This document shows, one piece after another, positions 1,673 to 32,239 of a DNA stretch of 64,000 bases. The notes under the pieces are model-generated. The model did not search any database. It saw nothing but the letters and a program-made list of their open reading frames with translations, and was not told the DNA's origin. The position numbers and the translations under genes were made by a program. Positions within the stretch are counted from its first letter, which is position 1; every line of letters starts with the position of its first letter. Origin of the DNA: an uncultured Acidobacteriota bacterium. GTDB lineage: Bacteria; Acidobacteriota; Terriglobia; UBA7540. The DNA lies in assembly GCA_963804995.1 (NCBI GenBank), contig CAWDSK010000006.1, forward strand, positions 512,001 through 576,000, in the 5' to 3' direction.

Positions 1673-2890
1673 ATGACCTCACAGCACCAGACTTCCACCC
1701 GTTACCTGATGGCGACGGCGTGCGCAGGCCTGTTTACATTCGGTGTGATAACTTCACTTCTAGGCGCAATTCTGCCGGAGTTGAGTGCGCGCTCCAATTT
1801 TGATTTGACCCGCAGTGGAACGCTTTTCAGTTTTCTCTATTTCCCGCAAGTTCCCATGGTCTTCCTGGCGGGGCCCTTGATCGACCGCTTTGGCAAAAAG
1901 CTTGTACTGGCCGTGGGTTTTATGTGCAGCGCCGCGGCGCTGGTGGGGATGGCTTACGCGCCCAGCTACGCGGTGCTGGGAGCGCTGCTCGTCATGCTCG
2001 GCCTGGGCGGCAGTTCCGCCATGGCCGCCGCGAACACGCTCATCCCCGACCTTTACCCGCAGAATCCCTCTTCCGCGCTCAATCTGGCAGGCATCTTCTT
2101 CGGCGTGGGAGCAGTCTTCTTCCCCTGGCTGGTGGCGCTTATGACGCGCTGGTTGGTAAGGCTGATGGCGCCCCCGATGGTGCTGGTCACAATCCTGTGG
2201 TTCATTGCGTTGCTGGTCGGACTGGTGGCCGTGGTGGCGTTGATGCAGAAGTTTCCCCCCGCGAGCATGGCGGGAGGATTCGACTGGGAGCGCGCCCTGT
2301 CGCTGGCGACTAATCCCGCTGTCATTATCCTTGCCTGCGTCCTATTCTTCTATTCCGCTTTGGAAATTTCCACCGCTGGCTGGATTCGCACTTTCCTGGA
2401 GAAAGATCTGGCCGTTTCCGCCCGGAATTCCACCCTCCTGCTGACGACTTTCTGGATCATGATGATGTTGGGCCGGCTGATTGCCAGTCAAGTCGTCAAG
2501 CGAGTTCGCGGGCCGCAATTGTTGCTGGGATGTTCCCTGGGGGCCCTCGCGGGACTCCTGCTCATGGCGCTGGCGCCCAACCTGTGGATAGCCACCGCCG
2601 GCATTATTCTCTGTGGGCTCTCCTACGCGCCGGTATTTCCCACCACCGCGGGGACCGCCAGCACCTACTTTGCGCGCATCTTTGGGACCGTGTTCGGCAT
2701 GCTCATGACTCTCGCCCTGCTGAGTGGGGCGGTGATTCCTCCCGCCATCGGATACGTCGCCCAACACCAATCGGTACGAGCCGGCATCTGGATTCTGGCG
2801 GGCATCGCGGTCCTGCTCCTGATTACGCAGGGGATCTTCAACAGTTACGAGCGGCGGAAACTGCTCCCCGCGGCGCCGGGACCGGCATGA
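1673..2890 (+). CDS. MFS transporter (sugar/fucose permease-like)
   Basis: About 12 hydrophobic segments; motif A-like GPLIDRFGKK. Confidence 0.88.
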   Translation: MTSQHQTSTRYLMATACAGLFTFGVITSLLGAILPELSARSNFDLTRSGTLFSFLYFPQVPMVFLAGPLIDRFGKKLVLAVGFMCSAAALVGMAYAPSYAVLGALLVMLGLGGSSAMAAANTLIPDLYPQNPSSALNLAGIFFGVGAVFFPWLVALMTRWLVRLMAPPMVLVTILWFIALLVGLVAVVALMQKFPPASMAGGFDWERALSLATNPAVIILACVLFFYSALEISTAGWIRTFLEKDLAVSARNSTLLLTTFWIMMMLGRLIASQVVKRVRGPQLLLGCSLGALAGLLLMALAPNLWIATAGIILCGLSYAPVFPTTAGTASTYFARIFGTVFGMLMTLALLSGAVIPPAIGYVAQHQSVRAGIWILAGIAVLLLITQGIFNSYERRKLLPAAPGPA

Positions 2891-3048
2891 GTGGATAATA
2901 TTGAGAGTTAACGGCTCACAGCTTGTGGTTATGCTGTCAAGCTATCGTCGCGCGGACCTCCTATGCTTGCCCGGGCAGGTCAGGACCGACAGATTGAGGC
3001 GCACGGCTATCGAAGGTGTGAAGTGGAGGGACACGCGCGAAATATGGT

Positions 3049-3300
3049 TCAATTATCACCTGCCATGTATCGCTGGATGACTTCACGTTTTGCGGGCGTC
3101 AAGCCGAGGAATGCCAATCCTACTTTTTTGCCCGAGTGGATTATATAAAGGACCTTGGCCCGCACCTTCTGTGCCCCAATCAGGGGCATCTCGCGCTCGG
3201 CGAAATGCGCTTTTCTGGGCTCTCGGGGCACAGGATGCGCAGGTCGCGAGATTTGGGGCATCAGGAATTCCAGTTCCAGAACCTGACCCACCTCGACTCC
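3049..3300 (-). pseudogene. PilZ-domain C-terminal fragment
   Basis: VGQVLELEF...VRAKVLY...VGLAFLGLT..REVIQRY resembles a PilZ barrel; no clear start. Confidence 0.4.
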
Positions 3301-3322
3301 ACCCGTAGGGCGGGCACTGCGA

Positions 3323-4180
3323 TTACGCAGATGGCTCGTTCTCGGCAAGGTACATGATGCCCTGCCGGTAGAGTTCCGGGGAGGGTCCCTTGGAACTGTG
3401 AACGACACGGGCATCGACAAAAACGTTCACCGCCGTCGGTGAATAGGGAACCGCAACTTGGATGTAGGATCCGGTGCGGTAGGGCCGGCGGCTGGTGAAA
3501 CGCAGCCCGCCGTGGGAGATGTCCTCAGTGGTCGCCACATCGTCGTCCGACCCAGCCTGGCGAATGCAGACGGGTATCTCCGCGGCCACCCGGCGACCCC
3601 TCCGTTGGGGCTTGGCGAGGGGGGGAGGCGCGGCGGCCACCAGCCTCGCGGGATTCGCCGGCCCTAACTCTGGCCGCTTCGTCGCCTCTTGCTGTAACTC
3701 CAGCCACAGTGTAGGCCTCCCACACTTGTCGCAACTGAGGGAAAGCTGCCGATTGGCGTTGTAGACTGCCAGTTCCACCGAGTCAAGATGCACAATCTTG
3801 CGCGTCCCGCAGACCTTGCACGAAAGCAGAGCTCGCCCGGCAATGTCGTTGTCAGGCGGCAACTCCGGGAAAAAAACATCCCAGAAACCCACCATAGGTT
3901 TCCGGAACACCACGCTGAGAATCTGCAGACCTGCCTGCTTCCCGATTTGCCCCGCCACGTGGAATTCCGCCTCTCGGGGAACAGGGGTCCGGCGACGGCG
4001 GATGCTAATCAACTGACCGGGAGCGAGCGCGGCCTTCAGAGCAACCGCCGCCCCGTGCCGAGCCACCGTCACGGTGGTGGTATCTTCTGAAAATGGATTT
4101 CCTGAAGCGTCGGTTCCGGACACTGAAACCGGCAGGGCGATTGAGACACGATCACTACGACGTTTGCTGGTCTCTGCCAT
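3323..4180 (-). CDS. Tandem PilZ-domain protein with central Zn ribbon
   Basis: RRSDR and RRGRR RxxxR motifs, DISHGG, CKVC and CDKC. Confidence 0.8.
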   Translation of the reverse strand: MAETSKRRSDRVSIALPVSVSGTDASGNPFSEDTTTVTVARHGAAVALKAALAPGQLISIRRRRTPVPREAEFHVAGQIGKQAGLQILSVVFRKPMVGFWDVFFPELPPDNDIAGRALLSCKVCGTRKIVHLDSVELAVYNANRQLSLSCDKCGRPTLWLELQQEATKRPELGPANPARLVAAAPPPLAKPQRRGRRVAAEIPVCIRQAGSDDDVATTEDISHGGLRFTSRRPYRTGSYIQVAVPYSPTAVNVFVDARVVHSSKGPSPELYRQGIMYLAENEPSA

Positions 4181-24147: not shown

Positions 24148-25245
24148 ATGCACATTCCCGATGGCTACCTCAGCCCGTCCACCTGCGTCGTTATGTACGG
24201 CGCCTCCACGCCGTTCTGGTACGTCGCCTTGAGACGCATGAAGAAGTTGCTGGCCACGCGTCTGGTTCCCCTTCTTTCAGTGGTCGCAGCGTTTTCCTTC
24301 GTCATAATGATGTTCAATCTACCTTTGCCCGGCGGCACCACCGGCCACGCCGTGGGTGTAGGAATCGCCACGATTATTCTGGGACCGTGGGCATCGATCC
24401 TGGCGCTTTCGACGGCCTTGCTGATCCAGGCAGTTTTTTTTGGAGATGGCGGAATCACCACGCTCGGCGCCAACTGCTTCAACATGGCGATTGTCGGGTC
24501 TCTTGTGGCCTATGCTGTTTACCGAATCACCGCTGGCCGCACAGCCCTGACCTCCCCGCGCCGAGTGGCGGCGGCGGGTTTGGCAGGATACATCGCCATT
24601 AACGCTTCGGCCTTATGCGCCGCGGTGGAGTTCGGCATTCAGCCCCTGTGGTTCAAAGACCCGAGCGGAGCACCCCTCTACGCTCCTTACTCTCTGAGCA
24701 TCGCGATTCCCGCCATGATGCTTGGGCACCTTACTCTGGCCGGAATTGCCGAACTTTTTCTTTCCGCGGGAGTAGTGGCCTACTTTCAAAGGACCAACCC
24801 TTCCCTGCTGAGGCTCACGGCTCCGGGAGCATCGGCCGCTGACGACTCGCTTGGTTTCGCTGCCGGCCAAAGTACGTGGCGCGCTATACGGCCTCTTTGG
24901 ACGGCGCTCGCCCTACTGCTGGTTTTAACCCCGCTGGGGATTTTGGCGGCGGGAACGGCCTGGGGGGAGTGGAGCGCGCGAGACCTTGCCGATCCGCACT
25001 CGCGTCAGATGATCACGGCGGCGTCCGGAAATGCCGCGCTGCCCCTCCAGGCGCCTCAAGGCCTCGAGCGCCTTTACTCTGTGTGGACGGCGCCCTTCCC
25101 CCAGTATGCTCCGGCGTTTGTCCGGCGGCCTGCGGTGGGCTATGCACTTTCCGCCATGTTCGGCTCGGGGCTGATTATTTTGGTTTTTCTGGTCGCGGGC
25201 ACTCTGGCCACGCGCAGCAGAGTGGGATCGAGCGGGGCGGATTAA
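24148..25245 (+). CDS. cbiM: Ni/Co ECF transporter substrate component, CbiM/NikM with C-terminal extension
   Basis: MHIPDGYL N-terminus, GTTGH, FGDGGITTLGAN. Confidence 0.92.
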   Translation: MHIPDGYLSPSTCVVMYGASTPFWYVALRRMKKLLATRLVPLLSVVAAFSFVIMMFNLPLPGGTTGHAVGVGIATIILGPWASILALSTALLIQAVFFGDGGITTLGANCFNMAIVGSLVAYAVYRITAGRTALTSPRRVAAAGLAGYIAINASALCAAVEFGIQPLWFKDPSGAPLYAPYSLSIAIPAMMLGHLTLAGIAELFLSAGVVAYFQRTNPSLLRLTAPGASAADDSLGFAAGQSTWRAIRPLWTALALLLVLTPLGILAAGTAWGEWSARDLADPHSRQMITAASGNAALPLQAPQGLERLYSVWTAPFPQYAPAFVRRPAVGYALSAMFGSGLIILVFLVAGTLATRSRVGSSGAD

Positions 25246-25263
25246 GCTGGACACAATAATCCC

Positions 25264-26073
25264 ATGAATTTTCTTGAGCGCACCCTGTCGAGTTTCGTCC
25301 AGGCCCTGGAGCGTGCCCTCTACGCCGAGGAACTCGCGAAAGTGAAAGGCCTGCTTCAGCGGCTCGATCCGCGCGTCAAGGTCATTGGCATCCTGGGATT
25401 GATTGTTGCCGCCGCCATGGCCCGGAAGCTCTGGGTCATCGGTGCGGTATTTGTGATTGCGCTTATCCTGGCCATTTCCTCCCGCGTACCCCTTGCGATC
25501 CTCACCCAGCGGGTTTGGATTCCCGTACTCTTGTTCACAGGAGTCATCGCCCTGCCTGCGCCGTTCGTGATACCTGGCCGCGAGGTCTGGCGCCTTCCCT
25601 GGCTGGGTTGGCCCGTAACGGTCCAGGGATTCACCAGCGCCGCTTATCTCGTGACGCGGGTTGAAACCGCGGCAACACTATCAGTCCTTCTCATCCTCTC
25701 GACACCCTGGAGTCATGTACTCAAGGCGCTGCGCGTACTTCGCGTGCCGGTCGTCGTTGTGGCAATACTGGGCATGGCCTACCGCTATATCTTCTTGCTG
25801 CTCGAAAGCGCTCACGATATGTTGGAATCGCGCCGCAGCCGTATGGTGGGCAATCTGGAAGGACCGGAGCGCCGCCGCGTTGCCGCCGCAAGTGTGGGAG
25901 TCCTGATGTCCAAGACGCTGCAACTAAGCGGTGACGTCTATAGCGCCATGCTGGCCAGGGGATTTCGTGGCGAGGTCTATGTGCTGGATGACTTCAAAAC
26001 CGCCGCACTCGATTGGATCATGCTGGCCGTTTTCGTGACCCTGGCGGCAGGCGCGTTTTATTGGGGGAGATGA
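25264..26073 (+). CDS. cbiQ: ECF transporter T component CbiQ/NikQ
   Basis: LDPRVK, YRYIFLL, SRRSR and AMLARGF motifs. Confidence 0.92.
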   Translation: MNFLERTLSSFVQALERALYAEELAKVKGLLQRLDPRVKVIGILGLIVAAAMARKLWVIGAVFVIALILAISSRVPLAILTQRVWIPVLLFTGVIALPAPFVIPGREVWRLPWLGWPVTVQGFTSAAYLVTRVETAATLSVLLILSTPWSHVLKALRVLRVPVVVVAILGMAYRYIFLLLESAHDMLESRRSRMVGNLEGPERRRVAAASVGVLMSKTLQLSGDVYSAMLARGFRGEVYVLDDFKTAALDWIMLAVFVTLAAGAFYWGR

Positions 26074-26076
26074 GGC

Positions 26077-26210
26077 GATTTTAGATTTTGGATTTTAGAT
26101 TTTGGATTGAAGCAGAGCTGCCAGGGGAGCGCGCTCATCAGAAATTTGAAATTGAAAAACGAAAGATCTAAGATCCAAAGCCGAAATCGAAAATCCAGAT
26201 TCCAGAAATC
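26077..26210. repeat. Heptamer tandem repeats (attttag/attttgg) with degenerate inverted partner
   Basis: (gatttt[a/g])n followed by aaatc-type repeats. Confidence 0.75.
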
Positions 26211-26212
26211 CT

Positions 26213-27017
26213 ATGCCAGTTCCAGTCTTTGACGTTCGCGAGATCACATTCCGTTATCACCAAGTCACCGCGCTCGAACAACTTGAGCCTGGCGGTCGCT
26301 CCCGGCCAGCGCGTGGCTCTGCTGGGGGCCAACGGCTCCGGTAAATCCACGCTACTGCGCATTCTCGATGGACTGGCCTTTCCGGAAAAGGGTAGAGTCA
26401 CGTTCTGCGGGGGGGCGCTCACTGAAGAACGCCTGCAGAATTCTGACTTCGTCTACGATTTTCGCCGCCGCGTGGGGCTGGTCTTCCAGAATCCGGACGT
26501 TCAGCTCTTTTCGCCTACGGTGTTTGATGAAGTGGCCTTCGGTCCCTTGCAGCTTGCATGGCCCAAGGAAAAGGTCCGAGCTCAGGTTGAGCAGATGCTG
26601 GAGGTGATGAAGATCTCCCATCTCAAAGATCGCTCGCCGCATCACCTTTCAACGGGAGAGAAGAAGCACGTCACGCTTGCCTCCGTGCTGGTGTTGGATC
26701 CGGAAGTGCTGCTGCTTGACGAGCCCACTGCCGCTCTCGACCCCAAGAGTGCGAGCCAGATCATCGATTTCCTGATTGGTCTCAGGGGCGGCCCGAAGAC
26801 TGTGGTCACGACGACGCACGACCTCGATATCGTGGAGGACGTTGCCGATCATTGCTTCGTTTTCCAAAGCGGGCGCGTGGTCGCTGCAGGCGCGCCCGGG
26901 GAAATTTTGCGTGAAACTGCTTTGCTCGAGCAAACCAATCTCGTCCATGCGCACCGGCACATTCATCCTTCGGGAGAAGTTCACACGCATCCGCATTTGC
27001 ACTCCCATAAACATTGA
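26213..27017 (+). CDS. cbiO: ECF ATPase CbiO/NikO with His-rich tail (1-nt frameshift near 26277)
   Basis: GANGSGKST, FQNPD, LLLDEP; N-terminus MPVPVFDVREITFRYHQVTAL is in another frame. Confidence 0.88.
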
Positions 27018-27241: not shown

Positions 27242-28558
27242 ATGGATAACGATACTCTGAATATTTTGGACAAGCGGACGAACACGACTTATGAAGTGCC
27301 GTTTCACAAGGGCACCATACGCGCCATGGATTTGCGGAAGATTAAAACCGGGCCCGAGGATTTCGGCCTGATGACTTACGACCCGGCGTTCATGAACACG
27401 GCTTCGTGTCACAGCGCCATTACTTTCATCGACGGCGACAAAGGCATTCTGCGCTACCGCGGGTATCCCATCGAGCAACTCGCGGAGAAGTGTACGTTCC
27501 TTGAGGTCGCATATCTGCTTCTCGCTGGTGAGTTGCCTACGTCCTCCCAATTAAAGGACTGGGTCAACAATGTCACTCACCACACCATGTTGCACGAGAC
27601 GACCAAGAAGTTTCTGGAGGGTTTCCGTTACAACGCCCACCCCATGGGAATGTTCATCAGCACTGTCGCGGCGCTCTCCACGGTTTATCCGGAAGCCCGG
27701 GATGTGCATGACGCCGCCACGCGGCAACTCCAGATTTTTCGCCTGATCGGCAAAGTTCCCACCATCGCCGCTTACACGTACCGCCACGGCCTGGGCTTCC
27801 CCTACGTCTATCCCGACAACGACCTGAGCTATGCCGAAAACTTCATGAACATGTTGTGGAGGATGGCGGAGCCCAAGTACGTGGCCAATCCCGCCCTGGC
27901 GCGCGCGCTCGACATCCTCTTCATCCTGCACGCCGACCACGAGCAGAATTGCAGCGCCAACGTGATGCGTTCGGTGGGCAGTTCCCAGGCCGACCCGTTT
28001 GTGTCGACGGCTGCGGCGGCGGCAGCGCTCTCCGGCCCCTTGCACGGCGGCGCCAATGAAGAAGTGCTGAAAATGCTTGACGAGATCGGATCGAAGGACA
28101 AGGTGCCGGCTTACATTGAAAGCATCAAAGCGGGCAAGGGAAAGTTGATGGGCTTCGGCCACCGCGTCTACAAGAACTACGATCCCCGCGCGCGCATCAT
28201 CAAGCAGGCCGCCGAAGAAGTCTTCGAGGTCACCGGCAAGAATCCCAAGCTCGAAATCGCCCTGGAACTGGAACGCATCGCGCTGCAAGACGATTACTTC
28301 GTCAAGCGCAAGCTCTATCCCAACGTGGATTTCTACTCCGGCATCATCTACCAGGCCATGGGATTCCAGCCGGAAATGTTTACGGTGCTGTTTGCCATTC
28401 CGCGTACGGCCGGATGGCTGGCGCAATGGCAGGAAATGATCCAGGACCCCGAACAGAAAATTGCCCGCCCACGCCAGATTTACACCGGCTACGACGAGCG
28501 GAATGTTGTTCCCATGGAGAAGCGCGGGGAGGCGAAGGAAGCAGGCAGTGGGCGGTAA
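27242..28558 (+). CDS. gltA: Citrate synthase
   Basis: HADHEQN, GPLHGGANE, GFGHRVYK and YPNVDFYSG motifs. Confidence 0.97.
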   Translation: MDNDTLNILDKRTNTTYEVPFHKGTIRAMDLRKIKTGPEDFGLMTYDPAFMNTASCHSAITFIDGDKGILRYRGYPIEQLAEKCTFLEVAYLLLAGELPTSSQLKDWVNNVTHHTMLHETTKKFLEGFRYNAHPMGMFISTVAALSTVYPEARDVHDAATRQLQIFRLIGKVPTIAAYTYRHGLGFPYVYPDNDLSYAENFMNMLWRMAEPKYVANPALARALDILFILHADHEQNCSANVMRSVGSSQADPFVSTAAAAAALSGPLHGGANEEVLKMLDEIGSKDKVPAYIESIKAGKGKLMGFGHRVYKNYDPRARIIKQAAEEVFEVTGKNPKLEIALELERIALQDDYFVKRKLYPNVDFYSGIIYQAMGFQPEMFTVLFAIPRTAGWLAQWQEMIQDPEQKIARPRQIYTGYDERNVVPMEKRGEAKEAGSGR

Positions 28559-28650
28559 GCAGAAAGCAGAAGGCAGAAAGCAGAAGGCGGTAGGCAGCGA
28601 GCGGCGTGTGCGAGTCCCGACGCCATCGGGATGGGCGGCAGGCAGTGATT

Positions 28651-28688
28651 GTAGCGCGGACCCCCGTCGTTGGGGTCCGCGGCTCTTC
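28651..28688 (+). repeat. GTAG-type REP, family B
   Basis: gtagcgcggaccccc...ggggtccgcggctcttc; paired copies at 32053-32189 and 34970-35090. Confidence 0.8.
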
Positions 28689-28824
28689 CGTTGACGCCTT
28701 CGATCATGCGGCAACAGGAGAGTTGGTAGCCACGGTCAGCGTTTTTCTGACCGTGGGTTCTTCCCTTGATGACGAGGGCATAGCACGCAGGGACAGTTCA
28801 ACCCCGAGCGGAAGCGGCGGGTGA

Positions 28825-29001
28825 GGCGGGGGTAGCCACGGTTAACGATTTTCTGACCGTGGGTTCTTCTGGTGGTGGTCGGGTTACAGCAAACTTACTT
28901 TGGACAGGGCAACGGTAGCCGCGTGTTCCATCCAGATTGACGACCTGCCGCTGGAGCATCGGGCATGAGAAAAGCCCACGGTCAGAAAAACGCTGACCGT
29001 G
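28825..29001 (+). repeat. REPIN family G (gtagccacggtcag...ctgaccgtgg), right arm split by the IS
   Basis: Arm ends ...ctgaccgtg at 29001 and resumes gctacccgc at 30716; extra arm at 28725-28760; inverted homolog at 31801-32000. Confidence 0.88.
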
Positions 29002-29078
29002 ATGTTATGAAACGGCGATGCCTCCTCGGGTCCAGGTAGACTGGACCTGGGAAAGAAATTCAACGAGGAGGCAAGACG

Positions 29079-30119
29079 ATGATACCGGTTGCGTCGGACG
29101 TTCACAAGGGACGTTGTTGGATGGCGATGATTCCGCCCGGGGAAGACGTAAAAATGCTGGAGCCGATCGAGTGCACGCGGGAAGCGTGGCGGCAGCGCTT
29201 GGCGGAGCTGCCGCCGGATGCGGAGATCGCTCTGGAAGTTTCCACCAGCGGTTATTTTGTGATGAGTGTGCTGGAAGAGGCGGGGTGGCGGGATCGGGCG
29301 CACTGGGTGCACACGGCGGGGATCGACAGCTTGCGCAAGCAGAAGTCGGACCGGCTGGACACTCGGCGCTTGGTGAAGAAACTGGCGGTGCACGACGTGG
29401 AGCCGCTACCGGAGGCTTGGTTTCCGCCCCCTTCCATCCGGGAATTACGCCTGCTGGCGCGGCAGCGGTGCGGCCTGGCGCGGCTGCGGGCCCAGACGAA
29501 GAACCGCGTCAATAGCCTGCTGGAGATGCACGGGCTGCGACCGCAGCGGTGCGTCTTCACCGCCAAGGGGCGAGCCTGGATCCAGCAGCAAGCGCTCTCG
29601 TCGGCGGCGCAGTTGTGTTTCGAGCGGATGTTTCGCCTGTACGATTTTCTCAGCGCCGAGCGCGAAACCAGCGAGGCGGAACTGCTGGCGGCCGCCGCGG
29701 CTTTCCCCCAGGTGGCGCTCCTGCAGACCATCCCCGGCCTCGGGCACATGCTGGCGGCGGTCATCTGGAGCGAGATCGGAGACCTGGCGCGTTTCGACTC
29801 CGCCGACGCGCTGTTGAACTATACCGGCTTGGTGCCCAGTTCCTACGATAGTGGCGAGGTTTCGATTCATGGTCCGATCACCCGCCAAGGTCCGGTCTGG
29901 TTGCGCTGGGCCTTGATCACCGCCGCCAACGCCCTGACGCGCAGCAAGAGCCCGCTCGGCCAGCGTTACTGGCACCTGCGGCGCTGCCACAAGCACCCCA
30001 ATGTGGCCAAGACGGCGGTGGCGGGTTCGGTCGCCCGCTGCGTTTACGGAGTTTTGAAACACGGAGCACCTTTCCAGGCCGAACGTTGGGGCCGGAGAGC
30101 CGGCAAGCTGGGGCAGTAA
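29079..30119 (+). CDS. IS110-family DEDD recombinase/transposase
   Basis: SDVHK, LEVST and KSDRLD (DEDD); TIPGLG; GLVPSSYDSG with the catalytic Ser; ITRQG..LRWAL; GAGGAGG RBS. Confidence 0.95.
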   Translation: MIPVASDVHKGRCWMAMIPPGEDVKMLEPIECTREAWRQRLAELPPDAEIALEVSTSGYFVMSVLEEAGWRDRAHWVHTAGIDSLRKQKSDRLDTRRLVKKLAVHDVEPLPEAWFPPPSIRELRLLARQRCGLARLRAQTKNRVNSLLEMHGLRPQRCVFTAKGRAWIQQQALSSAAQLCFERMFRLYDFLSAERETSEAELLAAAAAFPQVALLQTIPGLGHMLAAVIWSEIGDLARFDSADALLNYTGLVPSSYDSGEVSIHGPITRQGPVWLRWALITAANALTRSKSPLGQRYWHLRRCHKHPNVAKTAVAGSVARCVYGVLKHGAPFQAERWGRRAGKLGQ

Positions 30120-30690
30120 GCCTGAGGTAGCCATGGGGAAACCAAACCCGAACCGTGATGAGGAACTGCCCCTCGAACAACAGACTGAGGCCTGCGGGAG
30201 ACCCCCGCAGTGATCCTGTAGAGATGACTGGAATCGGCGCATCCGCCGGCGACATCGTGGCAAGCGACAAGCGCCCACGTCCTGGGCTCCGAGTTTCAGA
30301 AAGGGCCGAGCGAGAATTCTTCTCCTCGGCCGCGGTCGGGGGTGCGTGGCCTGGGGATTTCTCTTGGGCCACCGCACCACCGGCAGGCCAGGGTGAGAAC
30401 CTGGCCCTACCCCAGGGAGGTGTTTTAACTTAGCCGTGCAAGTTTCGGAGTGGCGAACTCGGCGAGGATCGTAATCGGCCGGGCGTTTTCTCAGGCATGG
30501 GGAAGCTATCGTAACCACCAGGAGGAGGAGCGATCATCCCATCGCCCCCCTGCTCGTCGTTACGATGAGCCTCCCACCGGCTATTCCTCGGCGGGTTGCT
30601 CGCCAGCAGAGCCCGCTTCCGCTTCGCCGGCTGACTGCCATTCTGAAACTAGGTGCAGACTTCTGTCAATCGGCACCTAAAATCCGCTTG
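30111..30690 (+). ncRNA. Predicted bridge/seek RNA in the 3' non-coding end
   Basis: Internal loop with GGTAGCCA and ACCGTG matches the target; AGAGATGA and GACATCG match the circle junction; many hairpins; exact ends unknown. Confidence 0.75.
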
Positions 30691-30734
30691 ACACGGCATC
30701 GCGGTTTCAGAGATGGCTACCCGCTGACGACGCA

Positions 30735-31304
30735 ATGTGGTTTGATGACCGGATCAAGCAATTTCAAAACGTTGCAGCGAAGTACGTGGATACCCCAAAC
30801 GCCCACACAAAGTGGTTAACCAACCAAATATCCGCGTGGCTCTTGCGACCCTGGACCGAAATACTCCGTCAGGGTGGGACTCAGTCATTTTTGACGGAGC
30901 GCCCTGGATTTGTGACTGACTTTATCAGAGGAATAGGATGGAAGAAGCCCTGGCGCTCGGTCGTACCGTTCTGTATTTCCGCTCTCCTGCTTCTCCTGTC
31001 GGTCGCGCTTGTCATTGGCTGCTATCTATTCTTCACGCCAACGGCAGCTTACGGCGCGGCTGGTATCAGCGGGCTTCTTTACGCGCGTCGGTACGTTCAG
31101 GCCCGCGATTTCAGGAAAGAGCGCGCGCGAGTCACCCGTTTGTGGCGCAAGGTTTCCGAGTTGCACAATGAGGTCGAAAACGGCAAGTACAACGCTGGCG
31201 AAGTCATCAGACGTTTCAGAGAAGTTGAAGTTGATGACTTGCGCCTCCCATCAATTTTCGTGAGCGTCATTGCGTTGTCGGAAGTGCACCCGCCAAGCGA
31301 ATAG
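30735..31304 (+). CDS. Hypothetical membrane protein (cargo, possibly N-truncated)
   Basis: 189-aa ORF with two hydrophobic segments; no RBS evident. Confidence 0.55.
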   Translation: MWFDDRIKQFQNVAAKYVDTPNAHTKWLTNQISAWLLRPWTEILRQGGTQSFLTERPGFVTDFIRGIGWKKPWRSVVPFCISALLLLLSVALVIGCYLFFTPTAAYGAAGISGLLYARRYVQARDFRKERARVTRLWRKVSELHNEVENGKYNAGEVIRRFREVEVDDLRLPSIFVSVIALSEVHPPSE

Positions 31305-31348
31305 CGGCCCCTCAAAACCGGCGCGTCTCAGGACCATTTGGAGCAATC

Positions 31349-31799
31349 ATGACGCAACACAATAACTTCATCAAGGCCGGGTTAGGCGTCCCGATTGTCA
31401 TTCTTTCCGGATTTTGTTTGGCTTCTAAATATATTTGGTATATCCAGACATTGCTTTACCTTGTTTCCCTCTTTCCGGGTACATATTTAGTTATAGGTCC
31501 AGCACTGGTAGCAGATCGTTTAGAAACAAACCCTAATATAGTGCAACTATCCGAACACGCTGATAAAGATAAATACTTTAATCGTACAGTAATAGGCTAC
31601 TTCATTCTTATGTTTTCTGCATTTTTGTTGGCATACTCATAGGTTTATTATTTATATTGCTATAATTGCGGCTATAGTTTTGGTTATGAGTTCGGGGATG
31701 AAGGCAGATTATTACGAAAACAACTTTGAAAGGCTTGTCGAAGAATGCCTTAAAAAGCGTGCCAAAGAATACGAGATACAAAACAACGTAAGAAAGTAA
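31349..31799 (+). pseudogene. AT-rich hypothetical membrane protein, split near 31640
   Basis: 97-aa hydrophobic ORF continues in a shifted frame as FIIYIAIIAAIVLVMSSG...NVRK*. Confidence 0.5.
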
Positions 31800-31800
31800 A

Positions 31801-32000
31801 AGCGGGTAGCCACGGTCAGCGCTTTTCTGATCGTGGGCTTTTCTCAGGCGCGATACCCCAATGGCAATCGCACGTAATCAATCTGGATGGGGCACGCCGC
31901 CACCGTTGCCTTGTCCAAAGCGAAATTGTTGTAACTCGACCACCGCCAAAAGAACCCACGGTCAGGACTGGTCGCCGCGGCGACACCGTGGCTACCCCGC
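31801..32000 (-). repeat. REPIN family G, inverted copy
   Basis: Arms and spacer match the reverse complement of 28825-29001 plus 30716-30725. Confidence 0.85.
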
Positions 32001-32239
32001 TATGGAGAAGCGCGGAGCGTAGAAGGCAGTAGGCAGAAGGCGGTAGGCAGTCGTAGCGCGGACCTCCGCCCTTGGTCCGCGGCTCTTCGTGTGCCGCCGG
32101 ACCGAAATCCGAAATGGCCGCCTCTATTCGGAATTTGAAGGATCTTTAAACGAAGAACCGCAGACCCCAACGACGGGGGTCTGCGCTACAGTTGCAGGGG
32201 GGGCCGAACCCCTAACCCCCAATCCCTAACCCCTGCTCT

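Follow-up and report, generated by a model that had tools for sequence, protein, structure and literature searches.

The window analysed here, a 64,000-nt stretch of contig C6 of a soil bacterium of the Acidobacteriota (Terriglobia; genome G000), contains at 29000–30715 (+) an intact IS110-superfamily element of IS1111 build, which we call IS-A. We conclude with considerable confidence that IS-A is an intact and recently mobile IS1111-type RNA-guided recombinase element.

Ends, cores and copies of IS-A

Junction sequence and a comparison of four copies define IS-A as a 1716-bp element including both TG cores (29000–29001 and 30714–30715, +). The left junction reads ctgaccg[TG]atgtta (28993–29007) and the right one cagaga[TG]gctacc (30708–30721), exactly where an earlier note on this DNA had placed them. 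The 15-bp sub-terminal inverted repeats described in that note were also recovered by repeat search (29008–29022 and 30695–30709, +); they have one mismatch (93% complementarity) and lie 6 and 4 bp from the cores. Four copies are present in G000, with 0, 0 and 1 difference over the 1717 bases compared. The note had anticipated that the flanks of further copies would read accgTG|gctacc, and all three others have the same ends, so that all four lie in the same orientation between ACCG|TG|GCTACC. Insertion in each case is at this specific target, with a short shared TG core and no longer duplication. Near-identical copies and intact frames together point to recent movement of IS-A. The near-identical copies agree with the earlier suggestion of a potentially active element.

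Non-coding DNA amounts to 79 nt before the gene and 596 nt after it. An outward-facing −35 box, TTGACA (30688–30693, +), has a −10-like partner, GATGAT, that is formed only when the ends of the circle are joined; the spacing of this putative junction promoter is 18 in 24 and 17 in 4 of the 28 clusters with both ends. The joined-end 14-mer of the circle junction is absent from the G000 assembly. In a DNA sequencing run, two contig joints linked a left to a right end; both were short-sided and belonged to contigs of relatives, and we did not count them. No public sequencing run contained more than one fifth of the words of the stretch. No plasmid record matched IS-A at 60% identity, and a named relative may still exist in ISfinder.

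Non-autonomous mini-copies could not be established in G000, where we found two orphan left ends without a right end within 4 kb. These belong to related elements, lie in sites of the target repeat REP-A at G000:C3:973244 (−) and G000:C6:230774 (−), and are followed by no gene or right end; they are relics of a third and a fourth lineage.

IS-A interrupts a GTAG hairpin repeat

The target of IS-A is the border between tag and stem of a GTAG hairpin repeat, REP-A, with about 150 copies in G000. REP-A has the GTAG tag, the hairpin, the many extragenic copies and the neighbouring RAYT of a GTAG REP; the RAYT (NF047646) adjoins one REP-A doublet. The 12-mer target occurs uninterrupted 87 times in G000 against 1.5 expected from GC content, and the upstream hairpin arm is present at 82 of these 87 empty sites. 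All four IS-A copies interrupt the repeat at the same point, separating the GTAG tag (here 30716–30721, −, from the junction sequence) from the hairpin (28968–28999, −), which belongs to the second REP of an inverted doublet starting at 28831. Removal of IS-A at the TG core restores a repeat that is identical at 37 of 39 positions to the REP at 28725, which bears out the earlier view that excision restores the REP arm and that the element sits within a REP. Empty REP-A copies lie nearby at 28725–28763 (+), 28831–28869 (+), 31805–31843 (+) and, with a variant loop, at 31950–31996 (−; repeat search and REP-A map); the unoccupied 12-mers listed earlier at 28725, 28831, 31805 (+) and 31985 (−) are exact. 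The statement that IS110/IS1111 elements often target REPs likewise stands, such targeting by the IS110 superfamily being already described in PMC1525189, PMC12288879 and bioRxiv 10.64898/2026.03.19.712850.

Two other readings of the site were rejected. The REP-A map consists of doublets and loose clusters, with no regular one-gene cassettes as in an integron-like cassette array. Membership of the IS1111-attC group does not fit a target at the tag–stem border of a GTAG hairpin repeat; the end motifs of attC sites were not seen, and the search with models covered Rfam.

The surroundings have features of their own. A 1.09-kb stretch of low GC content (47%) with short ORFs lies between two REP doublets (30716–31804); the doublets are inverted copies of each other (83–86% over 150 bp), and two ORFs scanned within the stretch matched nothing in Pfam or NCBIfam. 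A third GTAG repeat, REP-C, with about 200 copies, flanks the region (28650–28688 and 32053–32190). At locus L178, four REP-C copies lie beside a RAYT, adjoining an ORF that by eye resembles a reverse transcriptase. Three relatives (L011, L071 and L079) carry REP-C guides, and no such element was found in G000. Upstream of the repeat cluster are a nickel or cobalt transporter cluster resembling CbiM/Q/O by eye (24148–27017) and a citrate synthase gene identified by domain matches (27242–28558), from which read-through could reach IS-A.

The recombinase and its placement

The element encodes a 346-aa IS110-family RNA-guided recombinase (29079–30119, +) with domains PF01548 and PF02371, preceded by a putative ribosome-binding site, GAGGAGG (29065–29071, +), 7 bases before the ATG. 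The protein matches NF033542 above its cut-off (E 3e-52), and its profile matches the structures of IS621 and ISCro4. Both domains of the superfamily, the DEDD RuvC-like domain and the C-terminal SG domain, are there; D7, E53, D91, D94, S258 and G259, which had been noted as intact, are indeed all present, and are invariant or nearly so in 49 aligned relatives.

IS1111 elements, as described in PMC11187229, have inverted repeats of 11–13 bp or more, 7 and 3 bp from the ends, and an RNA after the gene in which the complement of the top target strand comes first. The length of the IS-A enzyme falls within the range of 330–350 aa, and the motif GL-P----SG is present as GLVPSSYDSG. The ends of IS-A align with those of IS4321, taken from a plasmid, and the repeats have its 3 + 7 spacing, provided that the innermost pair is treated as mismatched; in the relative L013 this pair is a true one. 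The 596-nt downstream region is the long non-coding region of an IS1111 element, and within it the top-strand complement (30126–30133) precedes the bottom-strand match (30152–30157), the order given for IS1111 seekRNAs (PMC11187229).

The protein is less easily placed. It is similar to ISEc11 and IS4321 at a phmmer E of about 1e-12, and its best reference scores are to ISSso6, ISBth13 and ISEc45, above those two. A 16-row tree did not resolve a grouping with ISEc11 and IS4321, and a constraint imposing one was not rejected (p-AU 0.21); its references were two IS1111 and six other named elements, the six taken as IS110-group from the order of a supplementary matrix. A phylum-wide search for distant relatives found them in 7 other genomes of 400. 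The recombinase might come from an IS110-group lineage that separately acquired IS1111-like ends and a 3′ RNA, as its best scores would suggest; such exceptions are reported in PMC11187229. We regard this as somewhat unlikely, given that the tree test does not reject a clade with ISEc11 and IS4321 and that the element follows IS1111 in protein length, end geometry and guide order. Of the earlier label "IS1111-type", the part that concerns DNA architecture holds, whereas the protein is not placed in the IS1111 clade. IS-A is filed here as an IS110-superfamily element that, judged by its architecture, works like an IS1111 member.

Target guides covary with insertion sites

Folding predicts a target-binding loop of a bridge/seek RNA at 30110–30172 (+), the outer stem of which begins in the last codons of the gene. 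Its inner stems are kept, with two-sided changes, in 41 of 41 aligned relatives, a count limited to inner stems because alignment gaps affect the outer one. The two sides of an internal loop in the predicted fold are the two guide segments. The first, GGTAGCCA (30126–30133, +), is complementary to the top strand of the core and right target; the second, ACCGTG (30152–30159, + with the following AT), equals the top strand of the left target and core. The AT, the predicted handshake dinucleotide, follows the second guide in 93 of 94 loci.

The RNA guide that the earlier note had attributed to this type of element was thus located for both sides of the target, and across relatives both guides covary with the insertion sites. 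We assembled 103 distinct loci, with repeats of one place removed and the eight G000 copies included, of which 94 had a readable loop. L007 (no strong match) and L012 (cut short) were set aside; the right-side test excluded the mis-called right ends of L021, L113, L053 and L099, and L059 for a one-base gap. For the right target, 415 of 426 positions matched over 71 loci (shuffled 336 ± 7), scored as the better of two registers in real and shuffled data alike. Left-target matches numbered 289 of 320 over 80 loci, against 187 ± 10 after shuffling. When each 90% protein cluster was represented by a single locus, the counts were 186/192 (right) and 136/148 (left), and with one locus per distinct guide 56/60 against 34 shuffled and 37/40 against 20.5. 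In every test, 0 of 20,000 shuffles reached the observed score; since related loci are not independent, these shuffle counts overstate significance and are not probabilities. The match was perfect in 64 of 71 right flanks and 56 of 80 left flanks, and imperfect in 7 and 24. On this covariation, a comparison of sequences only, both target strands are complementary to segments of the non-coding RNA.

Five guide labels mapped on a 43-row tree need 7 changes, where 4 is the least possible, and the A and B types are interleaved. The IS-A guide class is common to 27 of 43 relative clusters (56–100% identity), so the earlier claim that the element has its own target specificity was overstated. Within the same scaffold, guides of the A and D types lie one base nearer the core than those of the B and C types. 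A well-supported subclade (L057, L058, L066 and L073) has quite different guides, ending TGTCA and GAA-TG, and its left flanks were not recovered. Locus L064 combines an A-type left flank with a B-type right flank and guides; this chimeric site arose either by recombination between elements or by mis-assembly.

G000 also contains four copies of a second element, IS-B (58% aa identity to IS-A), one of them frameshifted and one with a nested element. Its ends are almost identical to those of IS-A, and it occupies the site GCTC|TG|CGCCAGC in another repeat. At the same places just after the stop codon, IS-A has GGTAGCCA and ACCGTG and IS-B has GCTGGCGC and GCTCTG, and each guide pair matches its own target. 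IS-B is a natural control, within the same genome, for the predicted guide–target pairing. The interrupted copy (G000:C3:1379537–1382378; L021, about 2600–3720) carries its 1.1-kb nested element at a TA, inside the predicted donor region of the IS-B RNA; judging from motifs, we take the two ORFs of the nested element to be IS630-like. In genome G065, two related copies lie ~2.3 kb apart in opposite orientation (L010 and L016, equivalent to G000:C6:1124004–1128322), an arrangement like that of a composite transposon or an invertible segment.

Predicted donor pairing and handshake

The donor-binding region predicted from fold and alignment spans 30176–30228 (+). It comprises a degenerate 5′ donor guide (30176–30182) and AGAGATGA (30220–30227), which matches the right end of the element and the core. 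All 41 aligned rows, a set selected by the presence of this motif, have AGAGATGA unchanged, and it was found in 41 of 43 clusters. Donor ends hardly vary among relatives; in L013 (32% aa identity), both donor halves and both RNA segments change together. The predicted donor pairing rests on the invariant 8-base match and on this one distant relative.

An alternative is that the RNA picks only the target while the protein reads the ends through the sub-terminal repeats, the AGAGATGA match having another role or none. An 82-nt seekRNA with target matches sufficed for movement of ISEc11 (PMC11187229), and the IS-A clade combines a degenerate 5′ donor guide with long, conserved inverted repeats. 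We nevertheless judge this unlikely in view of the near-universal match to the circle junction and the joint changes in L013, and we favour an RNA that would pair with donor as well as target.

In one respect the clade departs from IS621: an A follows the 3′ donor guide, at the position next to the core, in 91 of the 91 counted, and the equivalent G166A change in IS621 lowered recombination (PMC11208158). The AT after the second target guide matches the donor, and AC follows the donor guide. These dinucleotides would give one Watson–Crick pair before strand exchange and three after it, the pattern counted for IS621 (PMC11208158; PMC13626964). Read on the opposite strand, the geometry of IS-A is that of IS621 (PMC11208158; PMC11208160).

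A structured passenger on the minus strand

The 3′ region of IS-A measures 596 nt against about 330–360 in many relatives. As a whole it folds better than shuffled sequence (z −3.8), and further hairpins lie between guide RNA and passenger at 30251–30485. The passenger is an RNA-like structured motif on the minus strand (30486–30638), recognised by alignment and covariation, with a conserved core of three helices (30560–30638), then a variable hairpin and a conserved 3′ motif near 30486–30498. A sigma70-like promoter, TTGACA-18-CAGAAT (30640–30669, −), faces the motif and is antisense to recombinase and guide RNA; its boxes are conserved in relatives and its spacer is variable. Of the 32 clusters with a right end, 15 carry the passenger, and these are spread over the guide types. 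In an alignment of 22 sequences, pairing holds in 98% of cells, and both sides have changed in 8 of the 15 pairs; none of 500 shuffles and no slid control comes close, a result favoured by the derivation of the structure from the same alignment as was tested.

A model of the passenger matched 10 places in G000, eight of them within the two IS types. The other two (G000:C1:2564–2633 and C3:567446–567523) are weaker copies that lie outside IS110-type elements; both have a −10-like box, and the ORFs scanned there contained no transposase domain. The model matched 44 of 151 genomes of the class, a count that takes in G000 and G075, and 11 of 151 genomes of the phylum. We examined 28 of the 31 non-self loci returned, leaving out two repeats of earlier places and one unpublished locus, and scanned the four longest ORFs of each; 13 of the 28 were cut by a contig end. 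A transposase-type domain lies beside the passenger at 13 of 28 loci and was not found at 15. Seven are of the rve (IS3) type (L148, L154, L156, L159, L162, L168 and L173); at L150, L163, L165, L167, L166 and L176 the types are IS21 (two), IS110 (two), IS6 (one) and IS256 (one). Random G000 windows contained a transposase in 3 of 20 cases (Fisher p 0.03 against 13/28). The passenger mostly faces the transposase and in some cases follows it in sense. At one distance from the motif, a −10-like hexamer is present in 25 of 28 loci, compared with at most 8 at unrelated offsets beyond 13.

Rfam 15 gave no match over the motif at E values up to 1 in the window and nine other loci. Together with this result, the lack of any fit by eye to their known motifs led us to reject a hammerhead, an HDV-like ribozyme, a riboswitch and a box C/D RNA. 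A protein was rejected as well, as the copies do not preserve a common reading frame and a stop follows immediately in some. We found no description of the passenger in the literature, including the accessible text of PMC5737381 and bioRxiv 10.64898/2026.10.21.760802, whose supplementary motif tables could list it.

Expression was checked in four runs (three RNA, one DNA), all with contigs of relatives. A contig from a relative about 90% alike spans 30051–30707 or 30067–30619 in two RNA libraries. Coverage is deepest over the motif in each of the three RNA runs, but is high there in the DNA run too; with strand unrecorded and DNA possibly present in the RNA runs, we do not count this as evidence.

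The passenger may instead be a DNA relic, either a miniature element nested here or a fragment from the end of another IS. Its absence from 17 of 32 clusters, its occurrence in both orientations relative to transposases and the 15 loci without a transposase domain in the DNA scanned would all suit a relic, and the pairing could equally reflect a single-stranded DNA structure. We think this improbable, because pairing and two-sided changes lie far above the slid controls and because the hexamer keeps its distance although the surrounding DNA differs. Most probably the passenger is an optional small RNA, with transcription running in the direction of guide RNA and gene. Damping of the element, by antisense pairing or by collision, and plain hitch-hiking are about equally likely roles. 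More tentatively, and with slightly less than even confidence, we propose an uncatalogued small RNA of about 150–270 nt with its own sigma70 promoter, spread among IS110, IS3, IS21, IS6 and IS256 elements in Acidobacteriota and acting on carrier or host as a shared transposition brake, as an RNA for addiction or defence, or as a ribozyme or RNP scaffold of a new kind. If so, its transcription in IS-A would run into the bridge RNA, and the element would contain a control of its own RNA-guided recombinase.

Discussion

The idea that the protein or the REP hairpin chooses the target, with the RNA matches as by-products, draws on the position of the main targets at the hairpin foot, the upstream arm at nearly all empty sites and the specificity that a target stem-loop adds for ISPpu10 (bioRxiv 10.64898/2026.03.19.712850), but is very improbable, as closely related proteins differ in guide and target together while the same guides reappear in distant proteins, and single-base guide variants often have the matching flank (of seven ACTG-guide loci, three lie in an ACTG and three in an ACCG flank).

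We therefore return to RNA-guided insertion. By analogy with IS621 and ISEc11, read-through transcription would yield some enzyme and RNA, and the element would excise as a circle at the TG core. Joining of the ends would complete a promoter driving the gene and the 3′ RNA. The target loop would then pair with both strands of ACCG-TG-GCTACC and the donor region with the circle junction, and the RuvC-like DEDD domain and the SG serine would exchange strands with no duplication beyond the core. With a single handshake pair before exchange and three afterwards, insertion would be favoured over excision. The clade as a whole retains one donor end and switches guides among host REP families.

The IS-A clade offers a natural data set, with one donor end, recombinases 56–100% identical and guides repeatedly switched among host repeat families. 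Two specificities in one genome, those of IS-A and IS-B, permit tests of the cross-use of RNA and donor between paralogs, and the clade permits tests of a one-base slip in guide register and of donor pairing by IS1111-type RNAs. The passenger, if it is a real RNA common to unrelated IS families, would add something new to the biology of mobile elements and might serve as a switch for controlling bridge recombinases.

IS-A appears to be a new member of the system described in 2024, and may have a named ISfinder relative. It resembles ISEc11, ISPa11, ISKpn4 and IS4321, as described in PMC11187229, in its sub-terminal repeats, long 3′ non-coding region, putative junction promoter, guide order, enzyme of 330–350 aa and GL-P----SG motif; natural reprogramming between relatives is also already reported there, for ISEc11 and ISXne4. 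Its protein is only distantly related to those of ISEc11 and IS4321. IS-A differs from IS1111-family elements in its longer 3′ region with an extra antisense module, in its mismatched innermost repeat pair and in its target, an acidobacterial GTAG REP. With IS621, as presented in PMC11208160, PMC11208158 and PMC13626964, it shares a REP target, a 2-bp core, the 14-bp donor and target geometry, a predicted two-loop RNA and the predicted handshake of one pair before and three after exchange. IS621, unlike IS-A, has its RNA before the gene, short inverted repeats, a CT core and the opposite guide order; in IS-A, moreover, the core-adjacent handshake base on the donor side agrees with the donor.

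REP-A resembles the GTAG REPs with RAYTs of PMC3733652 in its tag followed by a hairpin, its doublets, its copy number of about 150 and an NF047646 RAYT beside a doublet. The available text of that study gives GTAG repeats for other phyla and mentions Acidobacteria only for TIR-flanked transposases. The nearest parallel to the passenger is ssr9 of ISPpu9 (PMC12288879), where an IS110-superfamily element in REPs likewise carries, downstream of the transposase, a small-RNA gene that is optional and has a promoter of its own. According to that account, ssr9 has end boxes of its own on either side, is restricted to three strains and pairs with Asr9, whereas for the IS-A passenger we found no separate end boxes and it occurs beside several unrelated IS families. 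The optional passenger makes IS-A a variant of the known system, and is the part most worth following.
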